The notes: generated by a model not told the origin, from the letters alone. DNA of 64,000 nucleotides from an uncultured bacterium (GCA_938031185.1 CALHGX010000024.1:13187-77186); one strand, 5' to 3'; numbered from the stretch's first letter, positions 12,882-27,989 are shown. Translations and numbers: made by a program.

Positions 12882-14609
12882 GTGCCGTCTTCTTCGTCAA
12901 TTCTTTCGTCATCGGCCAAAATACCCGAAATCCTCCTTCGGCGGGGCGCCATTAAACCCCAAGCCCTTGAGGAGGCACAAGAACACGCCCAGGCTGCATC
13001 CATGCGCTTGGAGAAGTATCTGGTGTCCAACCGTCTCGTGTCCCCCGACGAGATGACGCTGGCCTTGTCCGAGTATGTGCAAATGCCGCCGGTTTCACTC
13101 GCGCATTTCACCCTCAATCACGAACTGATCGAACGGGTGCCGCGAGACACACTGACGAAACACATGGCTATTCCGCTTGGGCGCGTAGGAAAAACGCTGA
13201 CCGTCGCCCTTGGCGATCCGTTCGACATTATGGCCTTGGACGAGTTGCATGCCGTGACGGGATTGGAAATTGTGCCGCTGGTGGCCTCCGAGAAAGACGT
13301 TCAAGAAGCGCTCGGACGTCTGGCCGCCCAGGACAACCTGGGCCTCGATCTGGAAGACGTTATGCGAACCTCGGACAGCGAGGTTGAAGTGGACCACGCG
13401 CAGGATTCGGAAGAGAGCCTCGAGGAAATGCTCGAGAGCGCCGAGGGCGCACCGGTCATCCGGATGGTGAATATTATCCTGGTGGAGGCGCTTCGCAGCC
13501 GGGCGAGCGATATCCATCTCGAACCGCAAGAAAGAACCTTCCGCCTCCGTTACCGCGTGGACGGCGATTTGATCGAGCGCCCCAATCCGCCCAAGAGCTA
13601 TCAGGCCGCCATCACATCACGCATCAAAATCATGGCGGATTTGGATATCGCCGAGCGCCGCGTGCCGCAGGACGGCCGGTTCAAGATTCGCGCGCTGGGA
13701 AAGGAAGTGGATATTCGCGTGAGCATTTTGCCCACCGTGCATGGCGAAAAAGTCGTCATGCGCGTGCTGGACAAGGCCTCGTTGGCGCCCAATCTCGCCG
13801 CATTGGGGCTGGACACGGTGGCTCATGAGGCCTTGAGCTACGCCATTGCCCAGCCACACGGCATCATCCTGGTGACGGGACCGACCGGCAGCGGCAAGAC
13901 CACCACGCTGTATTCCTGTCTTCAGGAGCTTAATCGGCCCGATGTGAACATCGTGACTTGCGAAGACCCGGTCGAATATCAGCTGCCCGGCATCAACCAG
14001 GTGCAGGTGCGCACAGAAGTTGGCTTGTCATTCGCCGCGGCCCTGCGCTCCATTCTGCGGCAAGACCCGGACATCGTGCTCGTCGGGGAAATACGGGACA
14101 GCGAGACAGCGGAAATCGCGGTCAAGGCCGCGCTGACCGGCCACTTGGTGCTAAGCACTCTGCATACCAACGATGCCGCAGGCGCAGTGACCCGCATGAT
14201 TGATATGGGCATCGAGCCCTTCCTGCTGGCCTCTTCGCTCATTCTGGCCCAGGCGCAGCGTCTTTATCGAAAACTGTGCATGGCTTGCCGCAAGGAAACG
14301 ACGTTGTCGCCAGAAATCCTCAAGCAAAACCGGATTGATCCCAATTTTTTCGGCCCGGCCGTTATTTATCGGGCGGTGGGTTGCCCGAAATGCAACAACA
14401 CCGGCTACCGCGGACGAGGCGCTATCATGGAAGTGCTGCCGGTGGACGACGATATCCGCACGGAAATACTGCGCGGCGCCAGCAGCAGCCAGATTCGCGA
14501 GAAGGCGCAGCAGCACGGAATGGTCACGCTCAAGGAAGCAGGCCTGATCAAGGTGCGGGAAGGCGTCACCTCGCTGGATGCGGCGCTGGAAGTCACGGGT
14601 GGCGAATAA
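12882..14609 (+). CDS. pilB: type IV pilus / T2SS assembly ATPase (PilB/GspE family)
   Basis: 575-aa ORF (GTG start) with a GspE-N-like N-terminal domain, Walker A GPTGSGKTT, Asp/His boxes and a C-terminal CxxC...CPKC tetracysteine motif. Confidence 0.9.
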   Translation: MPSSSSILSSSAKIPEILLRRGAIKPQALEEAQEHAQAASMRLEKYLVSNRLVSPDEMTLALSEYVQMPPVSLAHFTLNHELIERVPRDTLTKHMAIPLGRVGKTLTVALGDPFDIMALDELHAVTGLEIVPLVASEKDVQEALGRLAAQDNLGLDLEDVMRTSDSEVEVDHAQDSEESLEEMLESAEGAPVIRMVNIILVEALRSRASDIHLEPQERTFRLRYRVDGDLIERPNPPKSYQAAITSRIKIMADLDIAERRVPQDGRFKIRALGKEVDIRVSILPTVHGEKVVMRVLDKASLAPNLAALGLDTVAHEALSYAIAQPHGIILVTGPTGSGKTTTLYSCLQELNRPDVNIVTCEDPVEYQLPGINQVQVRTEVGLSFAAALRSILRQDPDIVLVGEIRDSETAEIAVKAALTGHLVLSTLHTNDAAGAVTRMIDMGIEPFLLASSLILAQAQRLYRKLCMACRKETTLSPEILKQNRIDPNFFGPAVIYRAVGCPKCNNTGYRGRGAIMEVLPVDDDIRTEILRGASSSQIREKAQQHGMVTLKEAGLIKVREGVTSLDAALEVTGGE

Positions 14610-14628
14610 GCAAGGAGTGGACCGGTAT

Positions 14629-15807
14629 ATGAGCCCCGTTATGCGACCGTCCGGCGGCACGTCATCCGCCAAGAGCGCACCGGTCACCAAGCCCGCAACA
14701 ACTCGGGGACGAACAAATCTTGGAACCCGTGGCCGTCCTGGCGGCCGTGTGCGCGTTCGCGGCGCGCGCCGGATCGTCGCCCGCGATCTGCCCACGTTTT
14801 CCCGGCAGATGGCCGCAATGCTTTCGGCCGGCATGTCCATCGTCGCCGCCATTGAGACGCTGGAGGAACAAGCCGCCACTCCGAGTTTCCGCATGGTCCT
14901 TGGCGAAATCCGCCGCAGCATCGAGAACGGCGCGGCCTTCTCCGAGGCGCTGGAGCCCATCCCCGAAGTCTTCGACGAGCTGTACGTTAACATGGTCCGA
15001 AGCGGCGAACGCAGCGGGCAATTTGCCGAGACCATGCAGCGAATCAGCGAACTGCTCGAAGCCAACGCCAAGCTGCGTCGAAAGGTGCGATCGGCCATGA
15101 CGTACCCTATCGTCGTACTGTCGCTGGCGCTGGTTATCGCCACCGGGATGATTCTTTTTATTGTGCCGGTGTTTTCCCAGATGTACGAGGATTTCGGCGG
15201 CGCGTTGCCCGGCCCGACGCAGTTCCTTGTCAACCTCAGCCATGGCGCCAAGAAATATGGCCTTTTCGTCCTGCCAACCATCGTGGCGGCTGTCTACTTG
15301 TTCAATCGGTGGCGCAAGACCGACAACGGCGCGTTGGTGATGGATCGCTTTTACTTGCGCGCGCCCGTCGTGGGCGTGTTGGTTCAGAAAGTCGCCATCG
15401 CCCGTTTCTCGCGCACACTGGGTCAACTCGTGAAGAGCGGCGTCCCGATTCTGTCCGCGCTGGAAATAGTCTCCAAGGCCTGCGGCAACCGGGTCATCGG
15501 CGCGGCCATCATGGCGGCGCGGACCGGGGTCGAACGCGGCGATCCAATTTCGGCGGGGTTGGCGGGCAAGGACTGTATTCCTTCCATCTTGGTTCGAATG
15601 CTCGCGGCTGGAGAAAAAACCGGCAAGATTGATGACATGCTGGAGAATATCGCCGACACCTTTGATGACGAAGTGGAGGCCATGCTGGCCTCTCTAACCT
15701 CCATGATCGAGCCCATGTTGATGGTGCTGCTGGGGGTCATCATCGGCAGTATCGTCGTTTGCATGTTCCTGCCGATCTTCAAGATGGGCGAATTGGTTTC
15801 TTCCTGA
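14629..15807 (+). CDS. pilC: type IV pilus / T2SS inner-membrane platform protein (PilC/GspF family)
   Basis: ORF 14578..15807. Start moved to ATG 14629 after aaggag, downstream of the pilB stop. Two GspF repeats are present (FSRQMAAMLSAGMSIV..., FSRTLGQLVKSGVPIL...) with 3 TM segments. Confidence 0.9.
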   Translation: MSPVMRPSGGTSSAKSAPVTKPATTRGRTNLGTRGRPGGRVRVRGARRIVARDLPTFSRQMAAMLSAGMSIVAAIETLEEQAATPSFRMVLGEIRRSIENGAAFSEALEPIPEVFDELYVNMVRSGERSGQFAETMQRISELLEANAKLRRKVRSAMTYPIVVLSLALVIATGMILFIVPVFSQMYEDFGGALPGPTQFLVNLSHGAKKYGLFVLPTIVAAVYLFNRWRKTDNGALVMDRFYLRAPVVGVLVQKVAIARFSRTLGQLVKSGVPILSALEIVSKACGNRVIGAAIMAARTGVERGDPISAGLAGKDCIPSILVRMLAAGEKTGKIDDMLENIADTFDDEVEAMLASLTSMIEPMLMVLLGVIIGSIVVCMFLPIFKMGELVSS

Positions 15808-15953: not shown

Positions 15954-15977
15954 TGAAACTTGAAGGGGATGGTCTCA

Positions 15978-17348
15978 ATGGCGACGCGCATATTGCTGGT
16001 GGACGACGAGCCGCGCATTCTGAGTCTGCTCAATAGTCTCTTGAAAAGAGAAAACTATGAGGTGACGTCCATGCAGGACGCCGCCAAGGCCATTGAGTTG
16101 ATTCGCTCGGACTCGTTCGATCTGCTGATATCTGACGTGCGCATGAGCCCGGTGGATGGCATGGAACTGCTCAAGGCCGCCCGGCAAAGTCAGCCGTCCA
16201 TGTCGGTCATCATGTTGACCGCCTACGGCACCGTCGAGACCGCGATCGAGGCGATGAAACTCGGCGCCTTCGATTATGTGACCAAGCCGTTCAAGGTGGA
16301 CGAGCTCCTTCTGACCATCCAGCGGGCCGTGGAATACGGCCGCGCGCTGTCGGAAAACGTGGATTTGAAGGCCGAGCTCATAGGCCGATACAGCTTCGAG
16401 AACATTGTGGCCGAGAGCGCGGCCATGCGCAACGTCTGCGAGATGATCAAGCGGGTGGCGCCGACGGACACGACCGTGCTGATTTCGGGCGAAAGCGGCA
16501 CGGGCAAGGAATTGGTGGCCCGCGCCATTCACACGCACAGCCGGCGGCGGGACAAGCGTTTCGTGGCCGTCAATTGCGCGGCCCTGCCCGAACCGCTGCT
16601 GGAATCGGAGATGTTCGGACACGTGAAGGGGGCGTTCACCGGCGCCAGCGCAAACAAGGAAGGCTTGTTCGAGACGGCGCACGGCGGCACGCTTTTTCTC
16701 GACGAGATTTCGTCCATGCCGATGAGCATTCAGGGCAAGCTGCTGCGCGTGCTGCAGGAAAAGGAAATCCGGCGCGTCGGCGGCACGAGCAACATCGCAG
16801 TGGACGTGCGGGTTCTGGCCGCAACGAACACCAATTTGGAGAACCTGATCAAGGAAGACCTGTTCCGCGAAGACCTTTACTACCGCCTCAGCGTCATCCC
16901 GATCGAAATCAAGCCGCTGCGCGAACGGCGTGAAGACATCATCCCCCTTGTCTTCCGCACCCTCCGCAACGAGATTGGCGAGGGGCGCGAAATGCCGCGG
17001 CTGACTCCGGAAACTCGGGCTGCTTTGGAGGAATATCCGTGGCCCGGCAACGTTCGCGAACTGGAAAATGCCATCAAGCACGCCATCACCTTCGCGCAGG
17101 ACGGCCGCATTACTCTCGAAGTTTTGCCGCCCAAAATTGCCGCCAAGGCTCACGGCGCGGCCCGACCAGCTGGAGAAAAGAACACAGACAGTGGTCGGGC
17201 AAAATCTCTCAAGGCCTTCTTGAGGGAGAAAGAGCGGGAATACTTGGAACAGGTACTCTCGGCAGCCGATGGAGACAAGGAAAAGGCAGCGCAGGCCCTC
17301 AAGATCAGCTTGGCCACCCTTTACCGCAAACTGCCGCCGAACTCATGA
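15978..17348 (+). CDS. sigma-54-dependent response regulator (NtrC family enhancer-binding protein, PilR-like)
   Basis: ORF 15960..17348. The ATG at 15978 is preferred (aagggga lies 8 nt upstream). It has a receiver domain (ILLVDDE...DLLISDVRMSPVDG), an AAA+ core (GESGTGKELVARAIH), an intact GAFTGA loop (GHVKGAFTGA) and a C-terminal Fis-type HTH (KEKAAQALKISLATLYRKL). Confidence 0.9.
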   Translation: MATRILLVDDEPRILSLLNSLLKRENYEVTSMQDAAKAIELIRSDSFDLLISDVRMSPVDGMELLKAARQSQPSMSVIMLTAYGTVETAIEAMKLGAFDYVTKPFKVDELLLTIQRAVEYGRALSENVDLKAELIGRYSFENIVAESAAMRNVCEMIKRVAPTDTTVLISGESGTGKELVARAIHTHSRRRDKRFVAVNCAALPEPLLESEMFGHVKGAFTGASANKEGLFETAHGGTLFLDEISSMPMSIQGKLLRVLQEKEIRRVGGTSNIAVDVRVLAATNTNLENLIKEDLFREDLYYRLSVIPIEIKPLRERREDIIPLVFRTLRNEIGEGREMPRLTPETRAALEEYPWPGNVRELENAIKHAITFAQDGRITLEVLPPKIAAKAHGAARPAGEKNTDSGRAKSLKAFLREKEREYLEQVLSAADGDKEKAAQALKISLATLYRKLPPNS

Positions 17349-17454: not shown

Positions 17455-17470
17455 TGGCATGCAGTCTGCT
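17455..17470 (+). promoter_or_regulatory. sigma-54 (-24/-12) type promoter candidate upstream of the major pilin
   Basis: TGGCATgcagtCTGCT in a lower-GC intergenic region, 81 nt before the pilin ATG. Canonical GG/GC spacing. Confidence 0.65.
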
Positions 17471-17551
17471 TTACGTGGAATGTGGGCGTCGTTGCGGCGG
17501 GTGCCGGAACGATGTTTTACCCGCAGTAGAGAAGAAAAAAAGGAGATGAAG

Positions 17552-17923
17552 ATGAAGAAGAGAACGAGATTGGGGTTCACGCTGGTTGAGATCATGATCG
17601 TGGTGGCCATCATCGGATTGCTGGCCGCGATCGCGATCCCCGGGTTCCTGAAAAACCGCCAGTTGTCGCAGAAGAACGCCTGCATCAACAACCTGCGAAT
17701 GATTGACGCGGCCAAGGAACAGTGGGCCATGGAAAAAGGCAAGAGCACCGGCGATGTCGTGGTGACCACGGAAGTGGACGAGTACATCAAAGGCCGTACT
17801 ACGCCGAGATGCCCTATCGGCAATACCAGCGCCAACTACACGTACAACGTGATCGGAGTCAGTCCCGCATGCAGCCAGACTGCCGCAGGACATGTGCTGC
17901 CTATCACGGAGACGACAACCTGA
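17552..17923 (+). CDS. prepilin-type N-terminal cleavage/methylation protein, probable major pilin
   Basis: Inside ORF 17039..17923. The ATG at 17552 lies 6 nt after aggag. The leader MKKRTRLG|FTLVEIMIVVAIIGLLAAIAIPGF has Gly-1 and Glu+5. The ACINNLRMIDAAKEQWAMEKG motif is common in PVC pilin-like proteins. It is followed by a strong terminator. Confidence 0.85.
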   Translation: MKKRTRLGFTLVEIMIVVAIIGLLAAIAIPGFLKNRQLSQKNACINNLRMIDAAKEQWAMEKGKSTGDVVVTTEVDEYIKGRTTPRCPIGNTSANYTYNVIGVSPACSQTAAGHVLPITETTT

Positions 17924-17941
17924 AGCCGACTGCTCGACGCG

Positions 17942-17978
17942 GACCCCCGGAAATGAAATTCCGGGGGTCTCTTTTTTG
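17942..17978 (+). terminator. rho-independent terminator after the pilin gene
   Basis: 11-bp GC-rich stem gacccccggaa / ttccgggggtc, 6-nt loop, then tcttttttg. Confidence 0.8.
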
Positions 17979-18031: not shown

Positions 18032-20182
18032 CTATGGAGTGTCTTCTGAGGTCGGAGCGGGGCCGATTCTGACCGGCTGCCGGTGACGGTACATCTCCAG
18101 CCGTGCACGGATGTGATCAGAAGAGAACGAAGTTCGTTCCGCCGGCGCCAGGGCTTCCATGCCCTCCTTGCGCTCCGTCATGATCGCTCGGCCCGCCTCG
18201 GCATCTTCACTCTTCCGCGCTTCGTGTTCCTCCGCCAGGGCCAAGGCGCGCTGGGCGCAAAGCTCGGCCTCCTCGAATTGGCCCATTTCGGCATAAGCCG
18301 CCGCCAAAACATCCAACGCTCGTACGCTGCCATCGCCTGCGGCTTTGGATGCCGCTTCGGCCAATCGCACCGCTCGAGCGCCATCCCGCAAGCGCGAATC
18401 GGGGGCTGTCGCCAACAACCACGCCAACTCGCACAAGATGGCGGGGGCGTCCGGCAGAATGTCCACGGCACGTTCCAGGTGCAATTTCGCCGAAGCAGCA
18501 TCCCCCCGCTGAAGCAGAATGATTCCAACCATCGCATGGGCAGGTCCATGTTCTGGGTTGAGCGAAAGAATTCGTCTCCATTCTCTCAATGCTTCTTGCT
18601 GACGCCCTTGGGCATAGTATAGCCATGCCATATTGTGTCTCGTCTTGACATCATATGGTTCCAAACGCAGCCATGTTTGATATTCCCGAATCGCATCTTC
18701 ATGACGGCCGAGACCATGCCAGGCCAGGCCGAGGTTGTTTCGAGCATGGCCACAGTAAAAAAACGCTTTCGCCCTATGTCGATCCGAAAGCCATGCGACC
18801 AGCTCTTCACGGCTCATGCGTTCAAAAGGCGGCAGGCGTTTGAGCAGCATGCGAGCAACGACTGCCGCCTCGGAATAGCGGCGCTGCCCGAGCAAGCCGC
18901 TGGAGCAGCCAATGTAGGCGCGCGGGTTGTGCGGTTGTTTGGCCAGCACATCCGCCCACATGATGTCCGCCGAACGGTAGTCGCGATTTCGGCGGGCGGT
19001 CATGGCACCCAGCCCCGCTGTGGCCGTAAGGCATAGCGCCATACCGATGACGCCCGCCCTTCGCCCCGCCGTTTTCTCCAATGCGTAATGGACGGCCATC
19101 ACCGTTGCCGCCAGCACACAGGCCAGCGGCAAATACATCCGATGCTCAAACACCACATCCGGAATAGGCATGATGCTCGACGTGGGTGCCAAAATCACAA
19201 AAAACGCCGCGCCCAGGAACCCGTACGCACTGCGACGCCTCAGGGCAACCAAGCTGGATACCAAGAGCACCGCGATCAAGGCGCCGGATCCAGCCACGTC
19301 GCGCCAGGATTCAGCCGCCGGCCAGAAATAGTCGAGACACAGAGGATGCGGCACGTAAACCAAGCGCAGATAATGCCCAATAACCCCGAGTTGGGTTCGC
19401 GCATACACCAGCGGCGAATAAGATGTCACGGTCGCTTGGTATCCTGACCAATGCGTCCCAGCCGTAATCAGCACCAGCACCGCCATCACGCCCCACGTGA
19501 GGGCCAACGCCACGTGGACCAACCCCCTCTTCCGTAGAATTTCCCAAAAGGAATCACCGGAAAAAGTCCAATCGAGCAGCCACAGCACCACCGGCAGCGT
19601 CACCATGACTTCCTTGGTCCCCATCCCCACCATGGCGATGGCAATGGCGACATCAAACCAAAGACGCGGTCGGTCGCCTTTCAGCCCCCGCACGAAGGCG
19701 TACACCGCCGCCAGAAAGAAAAGCCCCATGAGAGACTCCTCGCGCTGCGCGATATACGTCACCGCTTGCGTCTGGAGGGGATGCGTCACCCATAGCAAGC
19801 CTATCGCCAACGCCAACCAGGGCGCCCGCGCGCGTTCCGCGTCGGATGCGGCGCGCACGAGCAGAAGGCGACGGGCAATCCCATAGAGAAAGAGCGCCGC
19901 CAGCGTATGAATCAGGATGTTGACGGCCCGATAATCGCTCACCGTCCATTTGCCGATGGCGTAGTTGATCGAGAAGGTGACGTAGGCCACCCACCGCGTG
20001 GCCGTCACGACGCAAGCCCAGGGGGGCCAGAGCCGATGGATTCGAGGATTGGCCGTAATGACCGTTGCATCGTCGAAAAGGAATTCTCCTTGAAAACTGT
20101 TGGCATAGGCCAGAACCGCCGCCGCGATCAGCAGCAAAGGAAACCATCGGGTCAGACGCTTCATCGCTTCTTCTCCGGTCAT
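18032..20182 (-). CDS. TMTC-like GT-C membrane glycosyltransferase with C-terminal TPR domain (paralog 1)
   Basis: ORF 18032..20191. Starts are possible at GTG 20191 (GTGA overlap), ATG 20182 (8 nt after gggagg) or ATG 20164. It has about 11-12 TM segments. The first-loop motif FQGEFLFDDATVITANPRI carries the acidic DD (20069..20074), as in TMTC/PMT-type GT-C enzymes. The C-terminal ~250 aa are TPR repeats. Confidence 0.7.
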   Translation of the reverse strand: MTGEEAMKRLTRWFPLLLIAAAVLAYANSFQGEFLFDDATVITANPRIHRLWPPWACVVTATRWVAYVTFSINYAIGKWTVSDYRAVNILIHTLAALFLYGIARRLLLVRAASDAERARAPWLALAIGLLWVTHPLQTQAVTYIAQREESLMGLFFLAAVYAFVRGLKGDRPRLWFDVAIAIAMVGMGTKEVMVTLPVVLWLLDWTFSGDSFWEILRKRGLVHVALALTWGVMAVLVLITAGTHWSGYQATVTSYSPLVYARTQLGVIGHYLRLVYVPHPLCLDYFWPAAESWRDVAGSGALIAVLLVSSLVALRRRSAYGFLGAAFFVILAPTSSIMPIPDVVFEHRMYLPLACVLAATVMAVHYALEKTAGRRAGVIGMALCLTATAGLGAMTARRNRDYRSADIMWADVLAKQPHNPRAYIGCSSGLLGQRRYSEAAVVARMLLKRLPPFERMSREELVAWLSDRHRAKAFFYCGHARNNLGLAWHGLGRHEDAIREYQTWLRLEPYDVKTRHNMAWLYYAQGRQQEALREWRRILSLNPEHGPAHAMVGIILLQRGDAASAKLHLERAVDILPDAPAILCELAWLLATAPDSRLRDGARAVRLAEAASKAAGDGSVRALDVLAAAYAEMGQFEEAELCAQRALALAEEHEARKSEDAEAGRAIMTERKEGMEALAPAERTSFSSDHIRARLEMYRHRQPVRIGPAPTSEDTP

Positions 20183-20187
20183 GAATC

Positions 20188-21837
20188 TCACCTCCCGCCC
20201 TCCACGCCGTCCTCGGCGGTCGCCAACATCCTCAACGCCCGCTGCAACTTGTTCGAGACGTTGACAGAATCCGGCTGCAGGCTCAAGGCCGCCAAGTAAT
20301 CCTGAATCCCGGCCGCCGGATCGCCCTTGCTCACGCGCAGCAACCCCCGATTCGCATACGCTCTAAACAAATTGGCCTCCGACGTGTTGCTGCGCAAGAC
20401 CTCAGGCGGCTGGCGGGAATGAAAAGACGATTCCCGAAGCTGCCTCTGCGCTCGGCGAATGACCTCCCTGTATTGTGCTTCCGCCTCCTCCACGCGCCCC
20501 TGCTCTGATAGCGCAATAGCCCACTCGTTCCGGGCCCGCAGATTGTCCGGTCGAACCTCAACCGTGACGCGCCACATGCGTTCTTCAGAAGAGTAATCCT
20601 GATTGCGCAGCCACGTTCGAACCGCCAAAGCGGCAATCAAGGAAGCCCAGAAGACGCCCAGTACCAGCCGCCGCACGCACGGCCCGCCCTTCAACCGTTG
20701 GACGACCGCCGCGCTGCCGACGACACTCAAGACCACCGGCCCGGCGAGGGGCAGGTACATCCGATGCTCAAAAGCCAGATCGGCCACCGGCAACACACTG
20801 GAGCTCGGCGCCAGCGCCACCCAGAACCACAGCGCGGGATAGCTCCACATCTTGCAGCGCCAACACAGCCAAGCCGTCCCGACCATCGCCGCCACCGTCA
20901 CCAATGCCCCCGCGTCCACTTCGCTCAAGCGCTGTGCCGGCGGCCACGCATAATCCAAACAAAGGACGTCCGGCCATACCGTCAAACGGAGGTAACGGGC
21001 CACCACCTCCAACTGCGTCACGGTGTACTGAAAAGATGTGACGCCGGCTTGCCAAAACGCGGCGCCCGCTGCGGCGTATTGCCGAATTCCGCCGCCCATG
21101 ACCCCAGATGGATCGGGCGTCAGAACGACCAGCGCCGCCAAGAAGAGCCAGGCGGAAGCCAAACCAACGTACAGCCCTTTTCTCCTTCCTAACGCCTCCC
21201 CAAAAGAGGAGGCAACAAACGCTCGATCGTGCAGCAGCACAAGCGGCAGAATGACGACGGCGGTTTCCTTGGTCATGGCGCCGGCCCACGCCGCCGCGGT
21301 TGCGAGCAACCACCACCGCCTGGGCCGAATCGCTCGATAACTGCGGATCACCGCATAGAGGGCCAGAAGCACGAGCAGCCCTGCGGCGGTCTCCGCGCGT
21401 TGCACAACGTAGGTCACGCTCTCCGTCTGGAGGGGATGAACGGCCCATGCGGCGGCTGCGAGACCGCCGAGTTGTTTACCGTCCTCGTCGCAAAACTCAA
21501 GGTGATCTCTAAGCGTTCGACGGACAATGCCAAAAAGTAGCAAGGCCGCGCCCGCATGAATCACAATATTCACAGCCCGATACCCTCCCGGATTCAGACC
21601 GCCCATCCGGTAATTTACCGCAAAGGACCATTGCACCAGCCCTCGTGTAAGCGGCTGAAAAACATCCCGCAACGGCCATAAGGACCGGATACGGATGTTT
21701 TCGACAATCGAGCCGTAATCGTCGAAGAGGAACACTCCGAAAAGGGCGTTGGAATAGGCCAACGCCACCGCCGCGAGCGTCAAGAGCCACGGTGCCGCGT
21801 CTCGAAGCCTCTTGCTCGATTTGGAGCCATCCCCCAC
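20188..21837 (-). CDS. TMTC-like GT-C membrane glycosyltransferase with C-terminal TPR domain (paralog 2)
   Basis: ORF 20188..21975. The ATG at 21975 would overlap the divergent GT2 gene, so GTG 21837 (aggga upstream) is preferred. The N-terminus aligns with paralog 1: KRLRDAAPWLLTLAAVALAYSNALFGVFLFDDYGSIVENIRI versus KRLTRWFPLLLIAAAVLAYANSFQGEFLFDDATVITANPRI. The TPR tail is shorter. Confidence 0.65.
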   Translation of the reverse strand: MGDGSKSSKRLRDAAPWLLTLAAVALAYSNALFGVFLFDDYGSIVENIRIRSLWPLRDVFQPLTRGLVQWSFAVNYRMGGLNPGGYRAVNIVIHAGAALLLFGIVRRTLRDHLEFCDEDGKQLGGLAAAAWAVHPLQTESVTYVVQRAETAAGLLVLLALYAVIRSYRAIRPRRWWLLATAAAWAGAMTKETAVVILPLVLLHDRAFVASSFGEALGRRKGLYVGLASAWLFLAALVVLTPDPSGVMGGGIRQYAAAGAAFWQAGVTSFQYTVTQLEVVARYLRLTVWPDVLCLDYAWPPAQRLSEVDAGALVTVAAMVGTAWLCWRCKMWSYPALWFWVALAPSSSVLPVADLAFEHRMYLPLAGPVVLSVVGSAAVVQRLKGGPCVRRLVLGVFWASLIAALAVRTWLRNQDYSSEERMWRVTVEVRPDNLRARNEWAIALSEQGRVEEAEAQYREVIRRAQRQLRESSFHSRQPPEVLRSNTSEANLFRAYANRGLLRVSKGDPAAGIQDYLAALSLQPDSVNVSNKLQRALRMLATAEDGVEGGR

Positions 21838-21953
21838 CGAGCAACGATCCCTGAAACCGGACTTATTTTTTGCTCTGTTCTCCACTCTTTTGGAATGATA
21901 AGAAGAACCACGGAGGATGTAAAACCACTTCCCTACGAAGGGAGGCGTGCCAT

Positions 21954-22721
21954 ATGATCGGCAACCAATCCGCACCCCGCGTCTTGGTGATTGTGCCGGC
22001 GCACAACGAGGCCCCTCGTATTGCAGCCGTCGTGTGCGGCGTGCGGATGGCGCTGCCGGCTGCCGACATCGCCGTCATCAACGACGCCTCCACCGACGAA
22101 ACCGCCGCCCAGGCTCGTGAGGTCGGCGCATTGGTCTTGCCACATCCGGTCAACCTTGGCTATGGGGCCGCCCTCGAAACAGGCTACCTGCACGCCTTGG
22201 AGTCCGGATACAATTACGTGCTCCAGATGGACGGCGATGGGCAGCACCTGGCAGAGGAACTCCCAAAGTTGTTGGCGCCACTGGCCGCCGGCGAGGCGGA
22301 CCTGGTGATCGGATCCCGCTACCTGGCTGGCGGCCAATATCGGGCGCCGCTCCCGCGACGCATGGGACAGCTGTTCTTTCGCGCACTGGTCTGGCTCCTG
22401 ACGCGTCGGCGGCTGACCGACCCAACCTCCGGCTTCCAAGGCTTGAACCGCGACGCTCTGCGCTTCATGGTCAGCGGCATTTTTCCGCCGGATTACCCGG
22501 ACGCGGACGTCTTGACCATGACGGCCAAGGCCGGATTGCGCCTCATGGAAGTCCCCGTTCGAATGGCCACCCGCGAGGGGGGCGTGTCCATGCACTCCGG
22601 GTTGAAGCCGCTCTATTACATGATGAAGATGCTGTTGGCTTTGTTTGTTGTCTGGCTCAGCCGCGCCCGCTGGGCGCAGTGGCGCAGCGAACACCCGAGG
22701 GCCGTTCAGGGGGGACCATGA
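21954..22721 (+). CDS. family 2 glycosyltransferase, polyprenyl-phosphate sugar synthase-like (Dpm1/GtrB/ArnC type)
   Basis: ORF 21870..22721. The ATG at 21954 lies 8 nt after gggagg. Motifs: VLVIVPAHNEAPRI, NDASTDET, and MDGDGQH as the DxD-type motif. Confidence 0.85.
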   Translation: MIGNQSAPRVLVIVPAHNEAPRIAAVVCGVRMALPAADIAVINDASTDETAAQAREVGALVLPHPVNLGYGAALETGYLHALESGYNYVLQMDGDGQHLAEELPKLLAPLAAGEADLVIGSRYLAGGQYRAPLPRRMGQLFFRALVWLLTRRRLTDPTSGFQGLNRDALRFMVSGIFPPDYPDADVLTMTAKAGLRLMEVPVRMATREGGVSMHSGLKPLYYMMKMLLALFVVWLSRARWAQWRSEHPRAVQGGP

Positions 22722-22722
22722 T

Positions 22723-23178
22723 ATGTTCCTACTTCCACGCCAGCTCTACGCTTCCATCCTGATCGGGTTGTCCATTCTGGCGCTGATCATCCGGCTGGTG
22801 CAGAAGGGCCGGCTGGACATCGCCTATTGCTGGCTATGGCTGGGCATCGGGTTCGGCATGGTGCTGGCTGTGGCTCGATACGACTGGCTGCTGCGGCTGT
22901 CGGACTTGATCGGCTCGCGCACCCCCACGACCACGGTTTTCCTGCTGGGCTTTGTCGTCGTGCTCCTGCTCTGCCTGCAATACTCGCTGGTCATTTCCGC
23001 CCACCGGCGACAAATACGCCGTCTGGCCCAGCGCATTGCCATGCTGCAAGCAGAGGGCCAACAGCGTCGCGTCGAGCCCACACCAAGCCGGTTACGGCCA
23101 TCCGCTATGACGGATTCGCCGGCGAGGCCCGCCAATTCGGAAGGTTCCGAAGCGTCTCCAGGAACCGGCCCGCGTTAA
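22723..23178 (+). CDS. small membrane protein, DUF2304-like (GT2-associated)
   Basis: ORF 22645..23178. The ATG at 22723 lies 1 nt after the GT2 stop. It has three or four hydrophobic helices followed by a basic RRQIRRLAQRIAMLQ helix. This small-membrane-partner arrangement is typical next to GT2 genes. The 3' end overlaps the convergent GT4 gene by 74 nt. Confidence 0.55.
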   Translation: MFLLPRQLYASILIGLSILALIIRLVQKGRLDIAYCWLWLGIGFGMVLAVARYDWLLRLSDLIGSRTPTTTVFLLGFVVVLLLCLQYSLVISAHRRQIRRLAQRIAMLQAEGQQRRVEPTPSRLRPSAMTDSPARPANSEGSEASPGTGPR

Positions 23179-24364
23179 TTTCCAAAGCGCAGTGCCGCGC
23201 ATACCAGGCGGCATTCCGCCTGCGCGCCTCGGCCAGACGCCCGGGATCGGCCTGCAACTCACGGATATACGAGACCAGCCCTTCCACATCGCCGGGCCTG
23301 ATCTCCCGTCCCTCGACATCGTCCCTCACGATGCGGGACAAGTCGCTCTCCGAAGCCTGCACCAGCGCCACCGGCGTGCCGACTTTGAGATACCCATAAA
23401 TCTTCCCGGGCGCGATGATTCCTTCCATGCCGGGCTCGAGCGCCACAAAGCCCAGGCTCGCGGCCGACAGCGACTCGGAGAATCGGTCCGGCGGCACATA
23501 ATCGAGCACCCGTGCGTTGCTCAGTCGCTCCCGGCCAATGCGTTCCTCCAAGGCCCGCCGTTTGGGGCCGTGCCCGGCCAGAATAAACAACACGCGCGGA
23601 TCGGTTTTCGCAAGAACCGACGCGGCATCCAGCAGGGTGTCGAACGTGTGAACCAATCCCATGTTGCCCGAATAGTGCACAACAAATCGGCCCGCCAAAC
23701 ATTGCTCCGCAAGAAAACGGTTGCCGGACTCCGGCACGTAATGAATTTCTTCCGGCACCCAGTTATGCACTTCAACCAACTTGTCCCGCGAAACCCCCGT
23801 GGCCTCTATGCGGCGAGACATGCACGGCCCCAGCGTGAAGATTTTCGTGCACTCCCGATAGCCGGCGCGCGCCAGCATACTCGCGGTGCGGTGCGCAAAA
23901 CCGCCCCTCCGAATCAGACCGGTTTCGACAAGCACCTCCGGATAGAGGTCCATGGCCCAAAGCAGCAGCGGCACATGGCGCATGCGGGCCGCCCACCCGA
24001 GAAGAACATAGAGCAACGGCGGGGAAGTGATGCAGAGGACGGCGCGGGGACGCATCCTGGCCGCCAGGGCCAGTGCCTTGGCCCCAAACGACACCGCGTG
24101 GCCCAGATAGCTTGACGGAGTCACGCGGCGCGCGGCGGGGGCCTTCACGCGGCGCACCGTCACGCCATGATGCGTGTCGCGCGGCGGCAGGCGCATATCC
24201 GCGGCTGAATACATCCGGTCAGATGTCACCACCGCCACGCGCAAGCCTTTTGCCGCGAGATACGGAAGAAGGCTGTTGAAAGATTGACAGTGCCCGGTGG
24301 TCTCCGGGTGATAGTACGGCAAAACAACCAACACGTCGCAACCGGATCCCATGCGTCGCATCAT
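23105..24364 (-). CDS. GT-B fold family 4 glycosyltransferase (WcaI/WbuB-like)
   Basis: ORF 23105..24541. The start is probably at the ATG cluster 24352..24364 (MMRRMGSGCDVLVVLPYYHPETTG). The N-terminal PYYxPExxG motif and the C-terminal EPGMEGIIAPGKIYGYL region are GT4-like. Confidence 0.8.
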   Translation of the reverse strand: MMRRMGSGCDVLVVLPYYHPETTGHCQSFNSLLPYLAAKGLRVAVVTSDRMYSAADMRLPPRDTHHGVTVRRVKAPAARRVTPSSYLGHAVSFGAKALALAARMRPRAVLCITSPPLLYVLLGWAARMRHVPLLLWAMDLYPEVLVETGLIRRGGFAHRTASMLARAGYRECTKIFTLGPCMSRRIEATGVSRDKLVEVHNWVPEEIHYVPESGNRFLAEQCLAGRFVVHYSGNMGLVHTFDTLLDAASVLAKTDPRVLFILAGHGPKRRALEERIGRERLSNARVLDYVPPDRFSESLSAASLGFVALEPGMEGIIAPGKIYGYLKVGTPVALVQASESDLSRIVRDDVEGREIRPGDVEGLVSYIRELQADPGRLAEARRRNAAWYARHCALEINAGRFLETLRNLPNWRASPANPS

Positions 24365-24539
24365 AGGAATCGCAGCCCCCCCTCTCAACAGCAAAACCAA
24401 GGCGACGCTGCAGCCGGCATCGCGACGCCAGCGGGCCGGAAGTCGGTCTTGGCTTCGATCGGCACACCCGTGCATAATGACGGGAGGGGCGTCGTAAGAT
24501 CGCCCGTCAACAGGCCCGCCATACGGGTTGCGACAGCGC

Positions 24540-25979
24540 ATGAAAACAAAATTGGCCCTGGTTTCCGCCCCCGTCAGCCTGGAGGAACGCTACGGCGCCC
24601 TGGCGGGTGCCGCCAGCACCGAACCGTCTTTTGCGTTGGTCATGCTGGCCGCTGTGGCTTTGCGGGAAGACGCCGAGGTCCGCATCATCGAGGCGTCCGC
24701 CCGGAATCTCACGGTTGAGGAAACCGTGGATGAGATTCGATCTTTCGCCCCGGATATCGTGGGACTCACTGCCACAACCGTCGGCATTCGCGCGGCCGGC
24801 GAAGTGGCAGCCTGGATCAAAGCCGTCAACCCGAACACCCTGATTCTGGTAGGCGGCTGTCACATCAGCGCGTTGCCCATCGAAACCATGTCCGCCTTCC
24901 CCGCGTTCGATCTGGGCGTCTTGGGCGAGGGCGAACTGACCTTGACCGAGATCCTTCGCCACCATCGGCATGATCCGGTCCAACCTGTGGGGCTCGCGGG
25001 CACGGTCGAAAGGACCACCGATGAGATTCGCGTCAACCCGCCTCGCCCGCTGATCGGCAATCTCGATGAGCTACCGCTGCCCGCTTGGCATCTGCTGCCC
25101 GGCTTTCCAAAGTCCTTTCGTCCGTCGCCAGCCCGGATCAAGCGTTGGCCGTGCGCCTCGGTGGTACTGACGCGAGGGTGCCCGAACCGCTGCACGTTCT
25201 GCGACCGTTCCGTCTTCGGAAACCGCTGCCGGGGCTACAGCCCCTCTTATGCCGTGGAATTGCTAAAGGACCTGCGCACACGCTATGGCGTGCGGGAGGT
25301 GTTGATCGAGGACGATACGTTTGTCATCCGCCGCGACACGATGCAGGAGTTCTGCGAGCGGCTGATTTCCGAACGTGTGGACGTGACCTGGTCCTGTCTC
25401 GGGCGGGCCGATCGCGTCACGCCCGAATTGCTCCGCCTCATGAAGAAGGCCGGCTGCTGGCACGTGTCTTTCGGCGTCGAGAGCGGGGATCCTGAGATTC
25501 TGCGGTCCGTCAACAAGCGGCTGGATGTGGAGGAAATCCGGGAGGCGGTATCCTGGTGCAGGGACGCGGGGCTGATGACCAAGGGCTTTTTCATGATCGG
25601 GTTTCCGGGCGAAACGCGAGATTCCATCGAGGCGACCCGCCAATTGGCCTGCGCCCTGCCGCTGGACGACATCAGCGTCATGCAATTGACGCCCTTCCCC
25701 GGCAGCGACCTTTACAAGACCGCCCGCCAATTCGGAACCTTCGAAGAAGACTGGAGTCGGATGAACGCCCTGAACACCGTCTTCATCCCCAAGGGGTTCA
25801 CGCGGGAAGAACTGGACGAGGCGCGCGCCCGCATGCTCCGCTCGTTCTACCTGCGCCCTCGTGTGCTGGCTCGATATGCTTGGCGGCTGTTGCTCCGCCC
25901 CCGGCTTGGCTTGAGACTCCTGCCGGCTTTTTCCGCCTTCCTCCGCAGCGCATTTCCGACGCGTTCCCGCCTCTCCTGA
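24540..25979 (+). CDS. B12-binding domain radical SAM enzyme (class B)
   Basis: ORF 24528..25979. Start at ATG 24540 (MKTKLALVSAP). The N-terminus is Rossmann-like and cobalamin-binding-like (IVGLTATTVGIRAA...LVGGCHISALP). The radical SAM cluster motif CPNRCTFC is present. Confidence 0.85.
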   Translation: MKTKLALVSAPVSLEERYGALAGAASTEPSFALVMLAAVALREDAEVRIIEASARNLTVEETVDEIRSFAPDIVGLTATTVGIRAAGEVAAWIKAVNPNTLILVGGCHISALPIETMSAFPAFDLGVLGEGELTLTEILRHHRHDPVQPVGLAGTVERTTDEIRVNPPRPLIGNLDELPLPAWHLLPGFPKSFRPSPARIKRWPCASVVLTRGCPNRCTFCDRSVFGNRCRGYSPSYAVELLKDLRTRYGVREVLIEDDTFVIRRDTMQEFCERLISERVDVTWSCLGRADRVTPELLRLMKKAGCWHVSFGVESGDPEILRSVNKRLDVEEIREAVSWCRDAGLMTKGFFMIGFPGETRDSIEATRQLACALPLDDISVMQLTPFPGSDLYKTARQFGTFEEDWSRMNALNTVFIPKGFTREELDEARARMLRSFYLRPRVLARYAWRLLLRPRLGLRLLPAFSAFLRSAFPTRSRLS

Positions 25980-26033: not shown

Positions 26034-27182
26034 TCAGATCATCAGGATGCGGGACTGATTTTCGTCCGCCTGTTCGTCGCCTCTGGGATAAGCTTGCGTG
26101 CGGTACTCCGTCATCTCGTTCAGCTTGTGAAGCATGCACCGCAACGATTCCGCCGATTCGAGACAGGCGTCGAGCAATTCCCGTGTGACGGACGGATCCT
26201 TGCCGTGGCTGCGCTGCAGCATCTCGAGGCTGACCAGAATCACGGTCGCCGGCTGCCCGAGGTGGTGGCATGCGGCGCCGAGACTTTCCACCATCACCCG
26301 CTGCCGCTCCGCCTGCAGCTCGGCCTCCTCCGCGCGAATCCGGTCGCGGATATCCACGAACGACAGCACCATCCCCGCCACCGCGTCGTCCGCGTCTCGG
26401 TTGCAGTCGGCCGACACCTGCGCCTTGACTTCGACTCCGTCGGGCCGCCGCAAGGTCATCAGCCCGCTCCAGGATTGGCCCGCCGTCACGGCAAGGAACA
26501 TTTCTTCCGCCCGCTCCGATTCCATGAAAAGGGATCGTACATCCTTACCCAACATGGATCGCTCATCTTCCACGGCCCACAGCCGGCCGGCCGCCGGATT
26601 GGCAAACGTAATGCAGCCTTGCAGGTCGGTAATGGCAATCCCCGTGCCGGCGTTGCGAATGGCCAGATGCACAGCCCGCAGCATTTCCTCCGCCTGCCGA
26701 CGCAGCGTGATGTCACGCACAAAGAAGCAAAACATGGCCGTGGCATTGATCTGCAAACGGTTGACGGCGATCTCCGCAGGAAAGAAGCTTCCGTCCCGAC
26801 GCCGACAGTGCGCCTGAATCAAAATGAACCGGTCATGCTCCAGGTTCTCATTCAGCGTACGGATGGTCTCTTCGTCGGCGCCGGATATCACGTCTGGAAC
26901 GCCCAACTGCCGCAGCGTCTCCCGATCATACTGAAAGAACTCCGTGGCGCGTATGTTCCCATCCAGGATCCGGCCGCGCAGGTCTGTGACTATCGCGCCG
27001 TCATACACGCTCTGAAAGAGCTGCTGGAAACTCGATTCGCCGATCGGACCGTGTGCGCGAGATGCATCGGCATTCTTTCCCTCGCCACCGACCGCAGGAG
27101 CCGCGTGTCCGCTGTCCGTCTTTCTCAGATTCGGGGGGATGTCAATCCGCATTGTCTGCGACAGTCTGTCTCGCGCAGTCAT
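26034..27182 (-). CDS. tandem-PAS sensor protein ending in a DHp (HisKA-like) helix pair, with no ATPase domain
   Basis: ORF 26034..27272. Start at ATG 27182. There are two PAS-like modules (FQQLFQSVYDGAIVTDLRGRILDGN..., LAIRNAGTGIAITDLQGCITFANP...). The H-box-like LGAACHHLGQPATVILVSLEML lies at about 26240..26290. Only about 70 aa follow it, and no N/G1/G2 boxes are present. Confidence 0.7.
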   Translation of the reverse strand: MTARDRLSQTMRIDIPPNLRKTDSGHAAPAVGGEGKNADASRAHGPIGESSFQQLFQSVYDGAIVTDLRGRILDGNIRATEFFQYDRETLRQLGVPDVISGADEETIRTLNENLEHDRFILIQAHCRRRDGSFFPAEIAVNRLQINATAMFCFFVRDITLRRQAEEMLRAVHLAIRNAGTGIAITDLQGCITFANPAAGRLWAVEDERSMLGKDVRSLFMESERAEEMFLAVTAGQSWSGLMTLRRPDGVEVKAQVSADCNRDADDAVAGMVLSFVDIRDRIRAEEAELQAERQRVMVESLGAACHHLGQPATVILVSLEMLQRSHGKDPSVTRELLDACLESAESLRCMLHKLNEMTEYRTQAYPRGDEQADENQSRILMI

Positions 27183-27544
27183 CTCGTCCAATCCGTCCTT
27201 TCGTGCGCAATTTGTTTTTGCAGCAGAAAGTGTGCCTCGTTTGCATTTCGCTGAAAAATGCCGTTTTATCAACGCAACGCCACGTCGGCGGCCTCACCGG
27301 AACACCGCTCGCGCAATGTCCGAAGGCCTTCTGACGCCTTGATCGCCTTTCACGAGGGGATTGCATCTCTCACGCCACCCTGATTCCATTTTCATTCGTG
27401 AAAAAACTTGCCTGAAACGGGCCGGCGCGCCTCCCCGCTGTGGCCGCCTGTGATCTTTTTTTCGCTTGACGACCGGCACAAGGGGAAACGGCACCCCCAT
27501 GGGACTGCGCGTTTGGCGAAAGCTTGCACCGAATGAGCGCTTAT

Positions 27545-27560
27545 TGGCATTGTACCTGCT
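27545..27560 (+). promoter_or_regulatory. sigma-54 (-24/-12) type promoter candidate upstream of the minor-pilin operon
   Basis: TGGCATtgtacCTGCT at the end of a 390-bp intergenic region. Only 12 nt separate it from the ATG at 27573. Confidence 0.5.
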
Positions 27561-27572: not shown

Positions 27573-27989
27573 ATGATGAACAAGACCAACCGAAGCGGGA
27601 TGACGCTGGTGGAGGTTACGGTCGCTTTGGCCATTCTGGCTTTCGTGCTGGGCGGCATCTATCAACTGATCGTCCAGGCCGGACGGCTGGGGCGGCTGGC
27701 GCGCGATCATTATGTCGCGGTGATCCTCGCCCAGAACCGCATTGAACGAGCGAAGGTTTTCGACTACCGAGACTTGCGCCTGCTCGCGGAAACCAATGTG
27801 CTGATGAACGCCAACGGCGCGCCGGACCTCGAAGGCCGATTCCGGCGCACGACAAGTATCAACACGAACTTCGCGCCCAATCTCACCGAAGTGGTTTGCA
27901 CCGTGGAAATCAAGGATTGGCGTACCGCCCAGTTTGCGGGTGAAGGGGAGCGCGTGGCCTCCCTCTTTACGCGGTATCTGGAACCATGA
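27573..27989 (+). CDS. prepilin-type minor pilin / pseudopilin (PilV/GspI-like size)
   Basis: 138 aa. Leader MMNKTNRSG|MTLVEVTVALAILAFVLGG with Gly-1 and Glu+5. Confidence 0.8.
   Translation: MMNKTNRSGMTLVEVTVALAILAFVLGGIYQLIVQAGRLGRLARDHYVAVILAQNRIERAKVFDYRDLRLLAETNVLMNANGAPDLEGRFRRTTSINTNFAPNLTEVVCTVEIKDWRTAQFAGEGERVASLFTRYLEP

Follow-up and report, generated by a model that had tools for sequence, protein, structure and literature searches.

The DNA considered here is a stretch of 64,000 nucleotides, referred to as the window, from an uncultured bacterium (GCA_938031185.1, CALHGX010000024.1:13187-77186). It is high-GC (~62%) chromosomal DNA, and the closest relatives of its bacterium are Verrucomicrobiota and metagenome-assembled genomes (MAGs) of the "PVC group" (Planctomycetes-Verrucomicrobia-Chlamydiae). 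The window carries a gene cluster related to those for type IV pili and type II secretion systems (T2SSs), which spans ~12.9-42.6 kb from an assembly ATPase gene (12882) to a secretin gene (42583). Within this cluster, between the pilin gene and a gene for a PAS/HisKA kinase, lies a set of genes, here called the glycosylation island, at whose heart are two adjacent genes, A and B. Their products are homologs of the TMTC proteins, glycosyltransferases of the GT-C fold that carry C-terminal tetratricopeptide repeats (TPRs) and are best known from animals. An initial annotation of the window had proposed that this TMTC-like pair and a neighboring donor-synthesis module form a periplasmic system for O-glycosylation of pilus proteins. 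The features of the island are as follows.

18032..20182, minus strand: TMTC-like GT-C glycosyltransferase A, 716 amino acids (aa), with a predicted 11-transmembrane (TM) domain (aa 1-~400) followed by ~7 TPR hairpins
20188..21837, minus strand: TMTC-like GT-C glycosyltransferase B, 549 aa, first of the two genes in the B-A pair; its TPR domain is short
21838..21950, no strand: 113-bp divergent intergenic spacer between B and the GT2 gene
21951..22721, plus strand: putative polyprenyl-phosphate glycosyltransferase of family 2 (GT2; PpgS/DPMS/ArnC-like), PF00535 at 3e-23, with a QMDGDGQH motif
22722..23178, plus strand: DUF2304 small membrane partner (GacJ/Rv3632-like), PF10066 at 4e-21 (cut-off 25.5 bits)
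23105..24364, minus strand: WcaI-like family 4 glycosyltransferase (GT4), NCBIfam WcaI family at 4e-34
24528..25979, plus strand: B12-binding radical S-adenosylmethionine (radical-SAM) enzyme, Pfam Radical_SAM at 1.5e-30 and B12-binding at 3e-18

Genes B and A are tightly spaced in tandem, in that order, and A, whose product is identical to the called protein P0001, is convergent with the pilin gene. The two products are paralogs (36% identity over 516 aa, E 1e-61 by BLASTP), both end in TPRs recognized by Pfam (TPR_2 at 5e-20 in A, TPR_1 at 2e-6 in B), and their translations give the first-loop DD motifs as FLFDDATVITANPRI in A and FLFDDYGSIVENIRI in B. The translations, Pfam and BLASTP therefore bear out the initial description of a tandem pair of multi-TM proteins with C-terminal TPR arrays and an acidic pair in loop 1, and every gene that it listed is there at the coordinates given. 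B also has the motifs HPLQTE..QRAE, KET, LCLDY and FEHRMY.

The family of these proteins is not evident from direct searches. The membrane domains of A and B (~420 aa) match no Pfam or NCBIfam model even at E<=10, the only matches being to TPR models, and a search of PDB sequences with a TM-only profile recovered zero solved structures, while searches with the full-length protein or profile were swamped by TPR proteins. As Pfam and NCBIfam gave no direct family assignment, profiles were used instead. Across one alignment of 70 full-length homologs and another of 18 TM-only homologs, Asp37 is invariant and Asp38 is at least 90% conserved among the 70, with both invariant among the 18. Also invariant or nearly so in these alignments are H134-P135..T138..Y143..Q146-R147-x-E149, K190 (in GTKE), D204, D284-Y285-x-W287, S335-S336, D342 and E346-H-R-M-Y350. 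When the TM domains of the 18 relatives were scanned singly, PMT_2 was matched by 6/18 (best 8.5e-7) and TMTC_DUF1736, the family of the TM7-TM8 loop, by 3/18 (best E 0.042), with no match from A or B at E<=10; the TM7-TM8 loop nevertheless aligns when the bacterial and TMTC profiles are compared. The families named in the initial annotation were thus recovered in part: Glycos_transf_2 (PF00535) and DUF2304 in the donor module, but neither TMTC_DUF1736 nor PMT_2 in A or B themselves.

For the comparison with animal proteins, eight TMTC1-4 N-domain sequences were rebuilt from the alignment in the supplement of Eisenhaber et al. 2021 (PMC7801869). The bacterial TM profile aligns with this animal TMTC1-4 set by hhalign with Prob 99.9 and E 5.4e-34 over 371 columns, from TM1 to TM11 (query 16-406, template 6-428). 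A hidden Markov model (HMM) built from the animal TMTCs alone matches B with 99 bits (E 3e-30, end to end) and A with 72 bits; it also matches all 108 bacterial TM domains collected, with a worst E of 1e-13, against a best E of 0.7 among 106 shuffled controls. The TMTC motifs fall largely into register: M1 (DD) on D37 D38, M3 (RxD) on R147-x-E149, with E replacing D, M4 (KE(T/Q)xxT) on K190-E-V-M-V-T, M5 (DW) on D284-Y-x-W, and M7 (ERxxY) on E346-H-R-M-Y350, which is one residue longer. For M6 (PxxP) there is a loose match, with APTSS. No alignment is obtained for M2 (SHKSYRP): the bacterial proteins lack the loop-1 segment NDFWG..SHKSY, and of this motif only R63 survives, followed by Pro in most relatives, by Trp in A and by Gly in B. 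In the TMTCs, the NDFWG..SHKSY segment has been modelled as contacting mannose (Eisenhaber et al. 2021, PMC7801869). On the strength of the profile homology to TMTC1-4 and the aligned motifs, A and B are true homologs within the TMTC family of GT-Cs, in which the catalytic, metal-binding and phosphate-binding motifs are kept and the sugar pocket differs.

Structure prediction leads to the same fold. The AlphaFold2 model of A is of high confidence (pLDDT 92.9, pTM 0.90), and a Foldseek search with this full-length model returned TPR proteins only. With a model of the TM domain alone (pLDDT 88), 17/18 top PDB matches are GT-C glycosyltransferases, namely AglB, ArnT, Pmt1/Pmt2, EmbA/B/C, yeast and human STT3 and Pmt4 (Foldseek probability 0.92-1.0), and 1/18 is a GPI-transamidase subunit; no TMTC structure is among them. 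The TMTC-like GT-C identity first suggested from the sequence is thus upheld by hhalign, by the TMTC HMM and by the Foldseek matches, and the GT-C fold and conserved DD pair agree with what the initial annotation expected of a structural model. We are highly confident that A and B are active glycosyltransferases of this family. A topology with the N-terminus inside, 11 TMs and periplasmic TPRs is suggested by the homology to the TMTCs, by clusters of Arg/Lys where cytoplasmic turns are predicted and by two peaks of hydrophobicity that follow loop 5.

A and B belong to a very large family. Among the candidates scored there were 1386 matches, from Verrucomicrobia, Kiritimatiellae, Phycisphaerae, Planctomycetes and Acidobacteria, and a full profile scan of cluster representatives (50% identity) returned 91,807 at E<=1e-3, 65,044 at 1e-10 and 18,628 at 1e-30. 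JGI labels some members "protein O-mannosyl-transferase", and a PMT_2 domain is found in some. Tandem arrays of TMTC-like genes encoding GT-C and TPR domains occur in other PVC and Planctomycetota genomes, with 7 in 17 kb at one locus (L081; loci of relatives are given by number), 5 at L053, 4 at L031 and 3 each at L077 and L017, and neither a pilin nor a GT2 gene lies near these arrays. Such arrays suggest expansions of substrate-specific paralogs.

The donor module begins across the 113-bp spacer from B, in a divergent arrangement that recurs in six syntenic loci (L002, L004, L005, L006, L043 and L065). The best NCBIfam matches of the GT2 product are PpgS (polyprenyl-phospho-GalNAc synthase) at 2e-28, AglJ at 1e-20 and dolichyl-phosphate hexose transferase, all below their equivalog cut-offs (99 bits against a cut-off of 370 for PpgS), and its only solved relatives are the Pyrococcus dolichyl-phosphate-mannose (Dol-P-Man) synthase (DPMS, 5mlz) at 8e-12 and ArnC at 1e-4. 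The DUF2304 gene begins one base past the GT2 stop codon, and the pair is kept in 6 syntenic genome loci and in L093. In Streptococcus pyogenes, the DUF2304 protein GacJ binds and strongly stimulates GacI, a GlcNAc-P-undecaprenol synthase; in Mycobacterium tuberculosis Rv3632 likewise stimulates PpgS, and in each case the next step, transfer of the sugar outside the cytoplasm, falls to a GT-C enzyme. The likeness to PpgS, DPMS and ArnC and the presence of a DUF2304 partner support reading the pair as the known signature of a polyprenyl-phosphate sugar synthase, in keeping with the activity first assigned to the GT2. That A and B are supplied by this adjacent pair is likely, judging from gene order and homology.

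Directly after DUF2304 in the same six loci comes an ortholog (59-62% identity) of the B12-binding radical-SAM enzyme, and another lies near the GT2 gene in L009. Its nearest solved relative is AprD4 (1e-28), a radical-SAM diol dehydratase acting on an aminoglycoside sugar, and the NCBIfam models that it matches best, HpnJ and BchE, fall below threshold; by this resemblance, the enzyme may tailor the lipid-linked sugar. We know of no described trio of GT2, DUF2304 and radical-SAM enzyme. The island as initially drawn ended at 24364 and so cut off this conserved gene (24528-25979). The GT4 gene was at first grouped with GT2 and DUF2304 as divergent from A and B; GT2 and DUF2304 do lie on the plus strand, but the GT4 gene is on the minus strand, convergent with DUF2304, whose 3' end it overlaps by 74 bp, and wedged between DUF2304 and the radical-SAM gene. 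A tblastn search found no GT4 counterpart in 80 related loci. Its opposite strand and the zero counterparts led us to reject it as a component of the system, and it is probably a lineage-specific insertion into a conserved operon, peripheral to the rest.

As for the sugar, mannose had been implied by analogy with the TMTC O-mannosyltransferases and is not what the genes indicate: the mannose-contacting SHKSY of motif M2 is missing, and in its donor module the island resembles PpgS and GacI, so that mannose is disfavored. The module resembles N-acetylhexosamine (HexNAc)-P-polyprenol synthases, yet its closest solved structure is that of Dol-P-Man synthase. At L043, a gene for a UDP-N-acetylglucosamine 2-epimerase (13729-14895, plus strand; Pfam 1e-107) lies ~1.7 kb downstream of the TMTC-like gene, which weakly hints at a HexNAc-type (ManNAc?) sugar.

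The pilus cluster that surrounds the island comprises the following features, the regulatory elements among them.

12826..12840, plus strand: sigma54-type element, 42 bp before the ATPase start
12882..14609, plus strand: pilus/T2SS assembly ATPase (T2SSE and MshEN), Pfam T2SSE at 6e-137
14578..15807, plus strand: platform protein (T2SSF, PilC/GspF-like), Pfam T2SSF at 7e-61
15960..17348, plus strand: sigma54-dependent response regulator (PilR-like), Pfam Sigma54_activat at 3e-74, Response_reg and HTH_8
17455..17469, plus strand: sigma54-type element upstream of the pilin gene, exact TGGCATGCAGTCTGC
17546..17923, plus strand: major pilin/pseudopilin, 125-aa precursor, N_methyl motif at 2e-7
17941..17977, plus strand: terminator-like G+C-rich hairpin and T-run between the convergent pilin gene and A, GGACCCCCGG-N10-CCGGGGGTC then TCTTTTTT
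26034..27272, minus strand: PAS/HisKA sensor kinase (PilS-like), Pfam PAS_9 and HisKA, at the far border of the island
27545..27559, plus strand: sigma54-type element upstream of the minor-pilin operon, exact match
27573..30100, plus strand: two minor pseudopilin genes, 138 aa (27573-27989) and 704 aa (27986-30100), N_methyl at 8e-5
31454 onward, plus strand: PilM-like, Pfam PilM_2 at 3e-19
33102 onward, plus strand: T2SSM_b-like, Pfam T2SSM_b at 1e-5
35157..40727, plus strand: 1856-aa LamG/NHL protein, Pfam Laminin_G_3 at 1e-27 and NHL at 2e-24
40757..42583, plus strand: secretin, Pfam Secretin at 2e-35

The position of the island between the pilin gene (17546-17923) and the minor-pilin operon (27573-30100) is as initially annotated; the N-termini of the minor pseudopilins read RSGMTLVEV and RQGFTLAEL. 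The end of gene A and the pilin stop codon are 108 bp apart. The element TGGCAT-N5-CTGC, of the sigma54 -24/-12 type with GG-N10-GC spacing, occurs in three exact copies in the 64 kb, where 0.14 are expected and 0/100 shuffles reach three, and the three lie on the coding strand a short way upstream of the ATPase, the pilin and the first minor pilin, respectively. Because these elements precede the ATPase, pilin and minor-pilin genes, which fits the adjacent PilR/PilS-like regulator and kinase, the pilus genes appear to be under sigma54 control, in a regulon to which the glycosylation genes do not visibly belong. Co-regulation of the island by sigma54 was accordingly rejected, the element preceding the pilus genes but not the glycosylation genes.

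The linkage of TMTC-like genes to pilus genes was followed in a one-genome-per-species scan that yielded >593 relatives. The 80 best-matching loci were inspected, and the arrangement is kept in eleven of the closest, which belong to MAGs of Verrucomicrobiota, the PVC group, Kiritimatiellae, Victivallales and Lentisphaerae and whose TM domains are only 41-49% identical to that of A. In these 11 loci, 1-3 TMTC-like genes are flanked on one side by ATPase, platform, sigma54 regulator and 1-3 pilins, and/or on the other by GT2, DUF2304 and radical-SAM, with the kinase and PilM genes farther out; the assembly ATPase orthologs in the syntenic loci are 61-68% identical. The TMTC-like gene has a prepilin motif within 1.5 kb in 8/11 syntenic loci as against 1/69 other family loci. 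Pilus linkage is thus kept in related genomes, as the initial annotation had anticipated, and it recurs with other TMTC-family subtypes. In a neighbor-joining tree, the pilus-linked copies, A and B all fall in one clade with only three other sequences. Variants are seen as well: the Lentisphaerae loci keep the convergent pilin/TMTC-like pair and have unrelated genes at the GT2 position, while L002 has two pseudopilin genes directly downstream instead. A pilus link for the family as a whole is ruled out, since only 1/69 other loci have a pilin nearby; the link is confined to one clade and a few independent cases.

The reciprocal test started from an alignment of 12 pilin orthologs and scanned metagenome contigs. 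One contig locus, L093, repeats the full synteny. Another, L147 (8332-11573), has the sigma54 regulator (74% identity), pilin and PAS kinase back to back without the island, which therefore appears to be an optional accessory module beside the pilin gene, like tfpO and tfpW in Pseudomonas. On unrelated metagenome contigs, distant TMTC-family proteins, matched at 1e-19 to 1e-32 by an HMM of the bacterial TM alignment, adjoin related pilins.

L104, 11178-13136, plus strand: distant TMTC-family open reading frame (ORF) beside pilin
L120, 12175-13974, plus strand: distant TMTC-family ORF beside pilin
L141, 7302-9671, plus strand: distant TMTC-family ORF beside pilin
L131, 991-3060, minus strand: distant TMTC-family ORF beside pilin

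These ORFs carry FINFDD, FIWDD or FLMDD, HP..ES..ERK and DRYxY, plus TPRs. The 653-aa ORF of L104 follows two pilin genes directly and in the same direction, as tfpW follows pilA, and L105 has a further distant TMTC-family ORF 2.5 kb from its pilin. Among the 27 loci whose flanks extend for 3 kb or more, 5 carry a TMTC-family ORF no farther than 1.5 kb from the pilin block, and six such ORFs lie in ~206 kb of near flank as against one in ~203 kb of far flank (rough Poisson P 6e-4, with a background rate estimated from a single event). That different subtypes are repeatedly found beside pilins, and in different orientations, is the strongest sign here that the two are functionally tied.

Taken together, the island can be read as a module for periplasmic protein O-glycosylation from a lipid-linked sugar, an accessory to the sigma54-controlled type IV pilus/T2SS-like cluster that serves the pilus, a reading that we regard as evenly poised. 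We likewise give an even chance to a pilus protein being the acceptor, and name the major pilin (17546-17923) in particular as a tentative choice, slightly less probable than that. The mature pilin is ~105 aa. Across the 12 aligned orthologs, three Cys and Thr74, which belongs to a V-V-T-T strand, do not vary and Thr94 hardly varies, and the pilin of the window ends in TETTT. Thr74, Thr94 and the TETTT tail are candidate glycosylation sites by these criteria. The 1856-aa protein, which has two LamG-like (Laminin_G_3) stretches, NHL repeats and a bacterial TSP3 repeat and is encoded between the PilM/N/O-like genes and the secretin gene, could be a pilus-associated adhesin or secreted substrate and hence an alternative target.

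In the proposed mechanism, GT2 and DUF2304 would transfer one sugar from a nucleotide sugar to polyprenyl phosphate at the cytoplasmic face, as homology implies. The sugar would be a HexNAc or hexose by family resemblance, and the radical-SAM enzyme may modify it further. A putative flippase would then move the lipid-P-sugar to the periplasmic face, where B and A would use it as donor. The loop-1 DD would form the catalytic, acceptor-activating site, the motifs KE..T, LCxDY and E(H)RxY would bind metal and phosphate, and the sugar would pass to Ser/Thr of a protein held by the periplasmic TPR domains of A and B; donor use and topology of both proteins are deduced here from homology. Until it is assembled, the pilin would be held in the same membrane and expose its globular domain to the periplasm, as is the case with TfpW, TfpO and PglL. 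The two paralogs might serve different sites or steps, or might form a heterodimer.

Several observations weigh against this scheme. Neither A nor B alone matches any Pfam GT-C model, even at E<=10, and the Foldseek E-values are modest (1.6e-3 to 0.18) with TM-scores of 0.37-0.51. In both AlphaFold models of A, DSSP assigns residues 352-401 (window ~18980-19129) to one continuous, high-confidence helix of 50 residues, which fits poorly with the TM10/TM11 hairpin that periplasmic TPRs require; the hairpin is favored by the TMTC homology, by hydropathy, with its two peaks, and by the charged EKTAGRRAG turn in A. No GtrA-type flippase was seen among the ORFs scanned. At the level of the locus, the sigma54-type element is absent upstream of B and GT2 within the 64-kb window, and transcription of the glycosylation genes converges with or diverges from that of the pilus genes. 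Most family members (~65,000 50%-identity clusters at E<=1e-10) are linked to neither pilin nor GT2, and the family as such is therefore not pilus-specific. Finally, the host is an uncultured MAG, and the acceptor is read from gene neighborhood alone.

These points bear on three other explanations. A and B could be active TMTC-family protein glycosyltransferases whose acceptors are proteins outside the pilus, whether periplasmic, secreted or in the outer membrane, within an O-glycosylation system that is general or dedicated to something else, the pilin adjacency being due to an insertion hot spot or to inherited synteny. The great size of the family, mostly without a pilin neighbor (1/69 loci), the tandem arrays unrelated to pili in many genomes (7 copies in L081, 5 in L053), the lack of a shared sigma54 promoter and the otherwise equivalent locus L147 without the island all speak for such acceptors. 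Against them, pilin adjacency is kept across several PVC classes at only 41-49% protein identity, holds in Lentisphaerae loci whose GT2 lies elsewhere and is seen again, in various orientations, with distant subtypes of the TMTC family, and accessory genes beside pilA are a known pattern for the pilin modifiers TfpO and TfpW. We consider non-pilus protein acceptors unlikely, though a prospect to be taken seriously.

It is more doubtful still that A and B transfer sugar to a non-protein acceptor such as lipid A or lipopolysaccharide core, peptidoglycan or exopolysaccharide, in the manner of ArnT, GacL or Rv3779. The characterized GT2 plus DUF2304 systems (GacI/J/L, PpgS/Rv3632/Rv3779) do all decorate cell-wall glycan, ArnT is among the best structural matches, a WcaI-like GT4 gene is nearby and a UDP-GlcNAc 2-epimerase gene is nearby in L043; but the homology of A and B is over the full length of the TMTCs, which are protein O-glycosyltransferases, the TPR domain is common to TMTC and TfpW, both of which act on proteins, the island has no polysaccharide export or polymerase genes, and the conserved neighbors are pilus genes rather than envelope-glycan genes. 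As for inactive scaffolds, whose TPRs would aid pilus or secretin assembly like those of the TPR lipoproteins PilF, PilW and Tgl, both genes do lie inside the pilus cluster and the TPR region of A weakly matches the PilW, Tgl and GltE models, all far below cut-offs. Yet the catalytic and ligand-binding motifs, including DD, are invariant or nearly so in 70 homologs and in both paralogs, and a dedicated donor synthase is encoded next door, making this explanation highly improbable.

Glycosylation of a pilus protein by A and B would have close parallels among known systems. Animal TMTC1-4 (CAZy GT105), the endoplasmic reticulum O-mannosyltransferases of cadherins and protocadherins, have the same 11-TM catalytic domain, homologous end to end, and hold in common with A and B the loop-1 DD, HPxxTE..R-x-D/E, KE..T, LCxD(W/Y) and E(x)RxY motifs. 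Their C-terminal TPRs are non-cytoplasmic, as is predicted for A and B, and a polyprenyl-P-monosaccharide donor is expected for both. In contrast to TMTC1-4, A and B are bacterial and would be periplasmic, lack the NDFWG..SHKSY segment and do not match TMTC_DUF1736; their donor lipid is expected to be of undecaprenyl rather than dolichyl type, the sugar is probably not mannose, and the candidate acceptor is a pilin rather than a cadherin domain. The PMT/POMT enzymes (GT39, including actinobacterial Pmt) are likewise GT-C protein O-glycosyltransferases with an acidic loop-1 pair, and appear in the Foldseek and PMT_2 matches, but they have a luminal MIR domain instead of C-terminal TPRs, and in sequence they are far less similar to A and B than the TMTCs are.

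The nearest functional counterpart is TfpW of Pseudomonas aeruginosa, the D-arabinofuranosyltransferase (D-Araf transferase) of group IV pilin. This 646-aa GT-C has a cytoplasmic N-terminus and 11 TMs. Of its conserved periplasmic loops 1-5, the first bears a DDX motif and the fourth a Y-x6-P proline motif, and its C-terminal TPR domain also lies in the periplasm. Its gene directly follows pilA, and the enzyme uses a polyprenyl-P-sugar donor and is required for D-Araf modification of pilin. By its published description, TfpW resembles A and B in the 11-TM GT-C plus TPR architecture, the loop-1 DD, the pilin adjacency and the loop-4 Y-x6-P motif, which in A and B is Y271-x6-P278. The statement in the initial annotation that no TMTC-type enzyme dedicated to a bacterial type IV filament had been described overlooks TfpW and was too strong. 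The two systems differ in that the TfpW donor pathway comprises DprE1/DprE2/PRTase-type D-Araf genes and a GtrA-like protein, where here there are GT2, DUF2304 and a B12 radical-SAM enzyme; none of the D-Araf pathway families (PRTase, DprE1, DprE2, GtrA-like) was found among ~45 window ORFs scanned with Pfam, a scan that did not cover small ORFs exhaustively. They differ also in that tfpW is co-directional downstream of pilA whereas A is convergent with the pilin gene, and in that there are two paralogs here and the host is of the PVC group and not a proteobacterium.

The donor logic is shared with systems that act on other acceptors. GacI/GacJ/GacL of S. pyogenes and PpgS/Rv3632/Rv3779 of M. 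tuberculosis combine, as here, a GT2 polyprenyl-P-HexNAc synthase, a DUF2304 stimulator and an outer-face GT-C, but GacL and Rv3779 have no TPR domain, unlike A and B, and decorate cell-wall polysaccharides (rhamnan and arabinogalactan). ArnC/ArnT and GtrA/GtrB/Gtr(type) follow the same logic, in which a cytoplasmic GT2 makes an undecaprenyl-phosphate sugar and a periplasmic GT-C transfers it, and ArnT and ArnC are among the structural and sequence matches of the island; their acceptors are lipid A or O-antigen, they lack TPRs, and a flippase of the GtrA or ArnE/F type is not seen in this island. Reviews regard TMTC-like genes as eukaryotic and note homologues in prokaryotes only in passing, and our literature search found no paper that assigns a function to a bacterial TMTC-family member and none that links TfpW with TMTC. 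The new elements here are the membership of A and B in the TMTC family, a donor module of GT2/DUF2304(/radical-SAM) where TfpW has the D-Araf pathway, the presence of two paralogs and the conservation across PVC lineages.

A broader proposal, which we offer as possible rather than probable, is that a PVC-wide clade of the TMTC family is a dedicated pilin O-glycosylation system using a polyprenyl-P-sugar made by GT2/DUF2304 and possibly modified by the radical-SAM enzyme, and that the pairing of pilins with TMTC-like GT-C/TPR proteins, of which TfpW is one instance, is a recurrent and largely unrecognized bacterial route to glycosylation of type IV filaments. If so, there would be a functional lead for a very large family (~65,000 50%-identity clusters at E<=1e-10) whose members are mostly annotated "tetratricopeptide repeat protein", and A and B would be the first functionally assignable bacterial relatives of the TMTCs and a tractable model for how TPR-bearing GT-C enzymes choose folded acceptors. 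They could also serve as a bacterial model for the disease-linked animal TMTCs, for which our searches found no solved structure, and in such a model a defined donor module and a small candidate acceptor would aid enzymology and structural work. In proteobacteria, pilin glycosylation affects pilus function, phage resistance and immune evasion, and glycosylation by TfpO and TfpW protects against pilus-specific phages; the modification would extend to the abundant environmental and gut-associated Verrucomicrobiota, Kiritimatiellae and Lentisphaerae, which would suggest that TfpW-like chemistry is widespread and not a Pseudomonas curiosity.

Downstream of the pilus cluster, the minus strand of the window carries two further genes, one for a 793-aa all-TPR protein with a YfiO-like region (51200-53581) and the other for a channel of the MotA/ExbB family (53944-54738).

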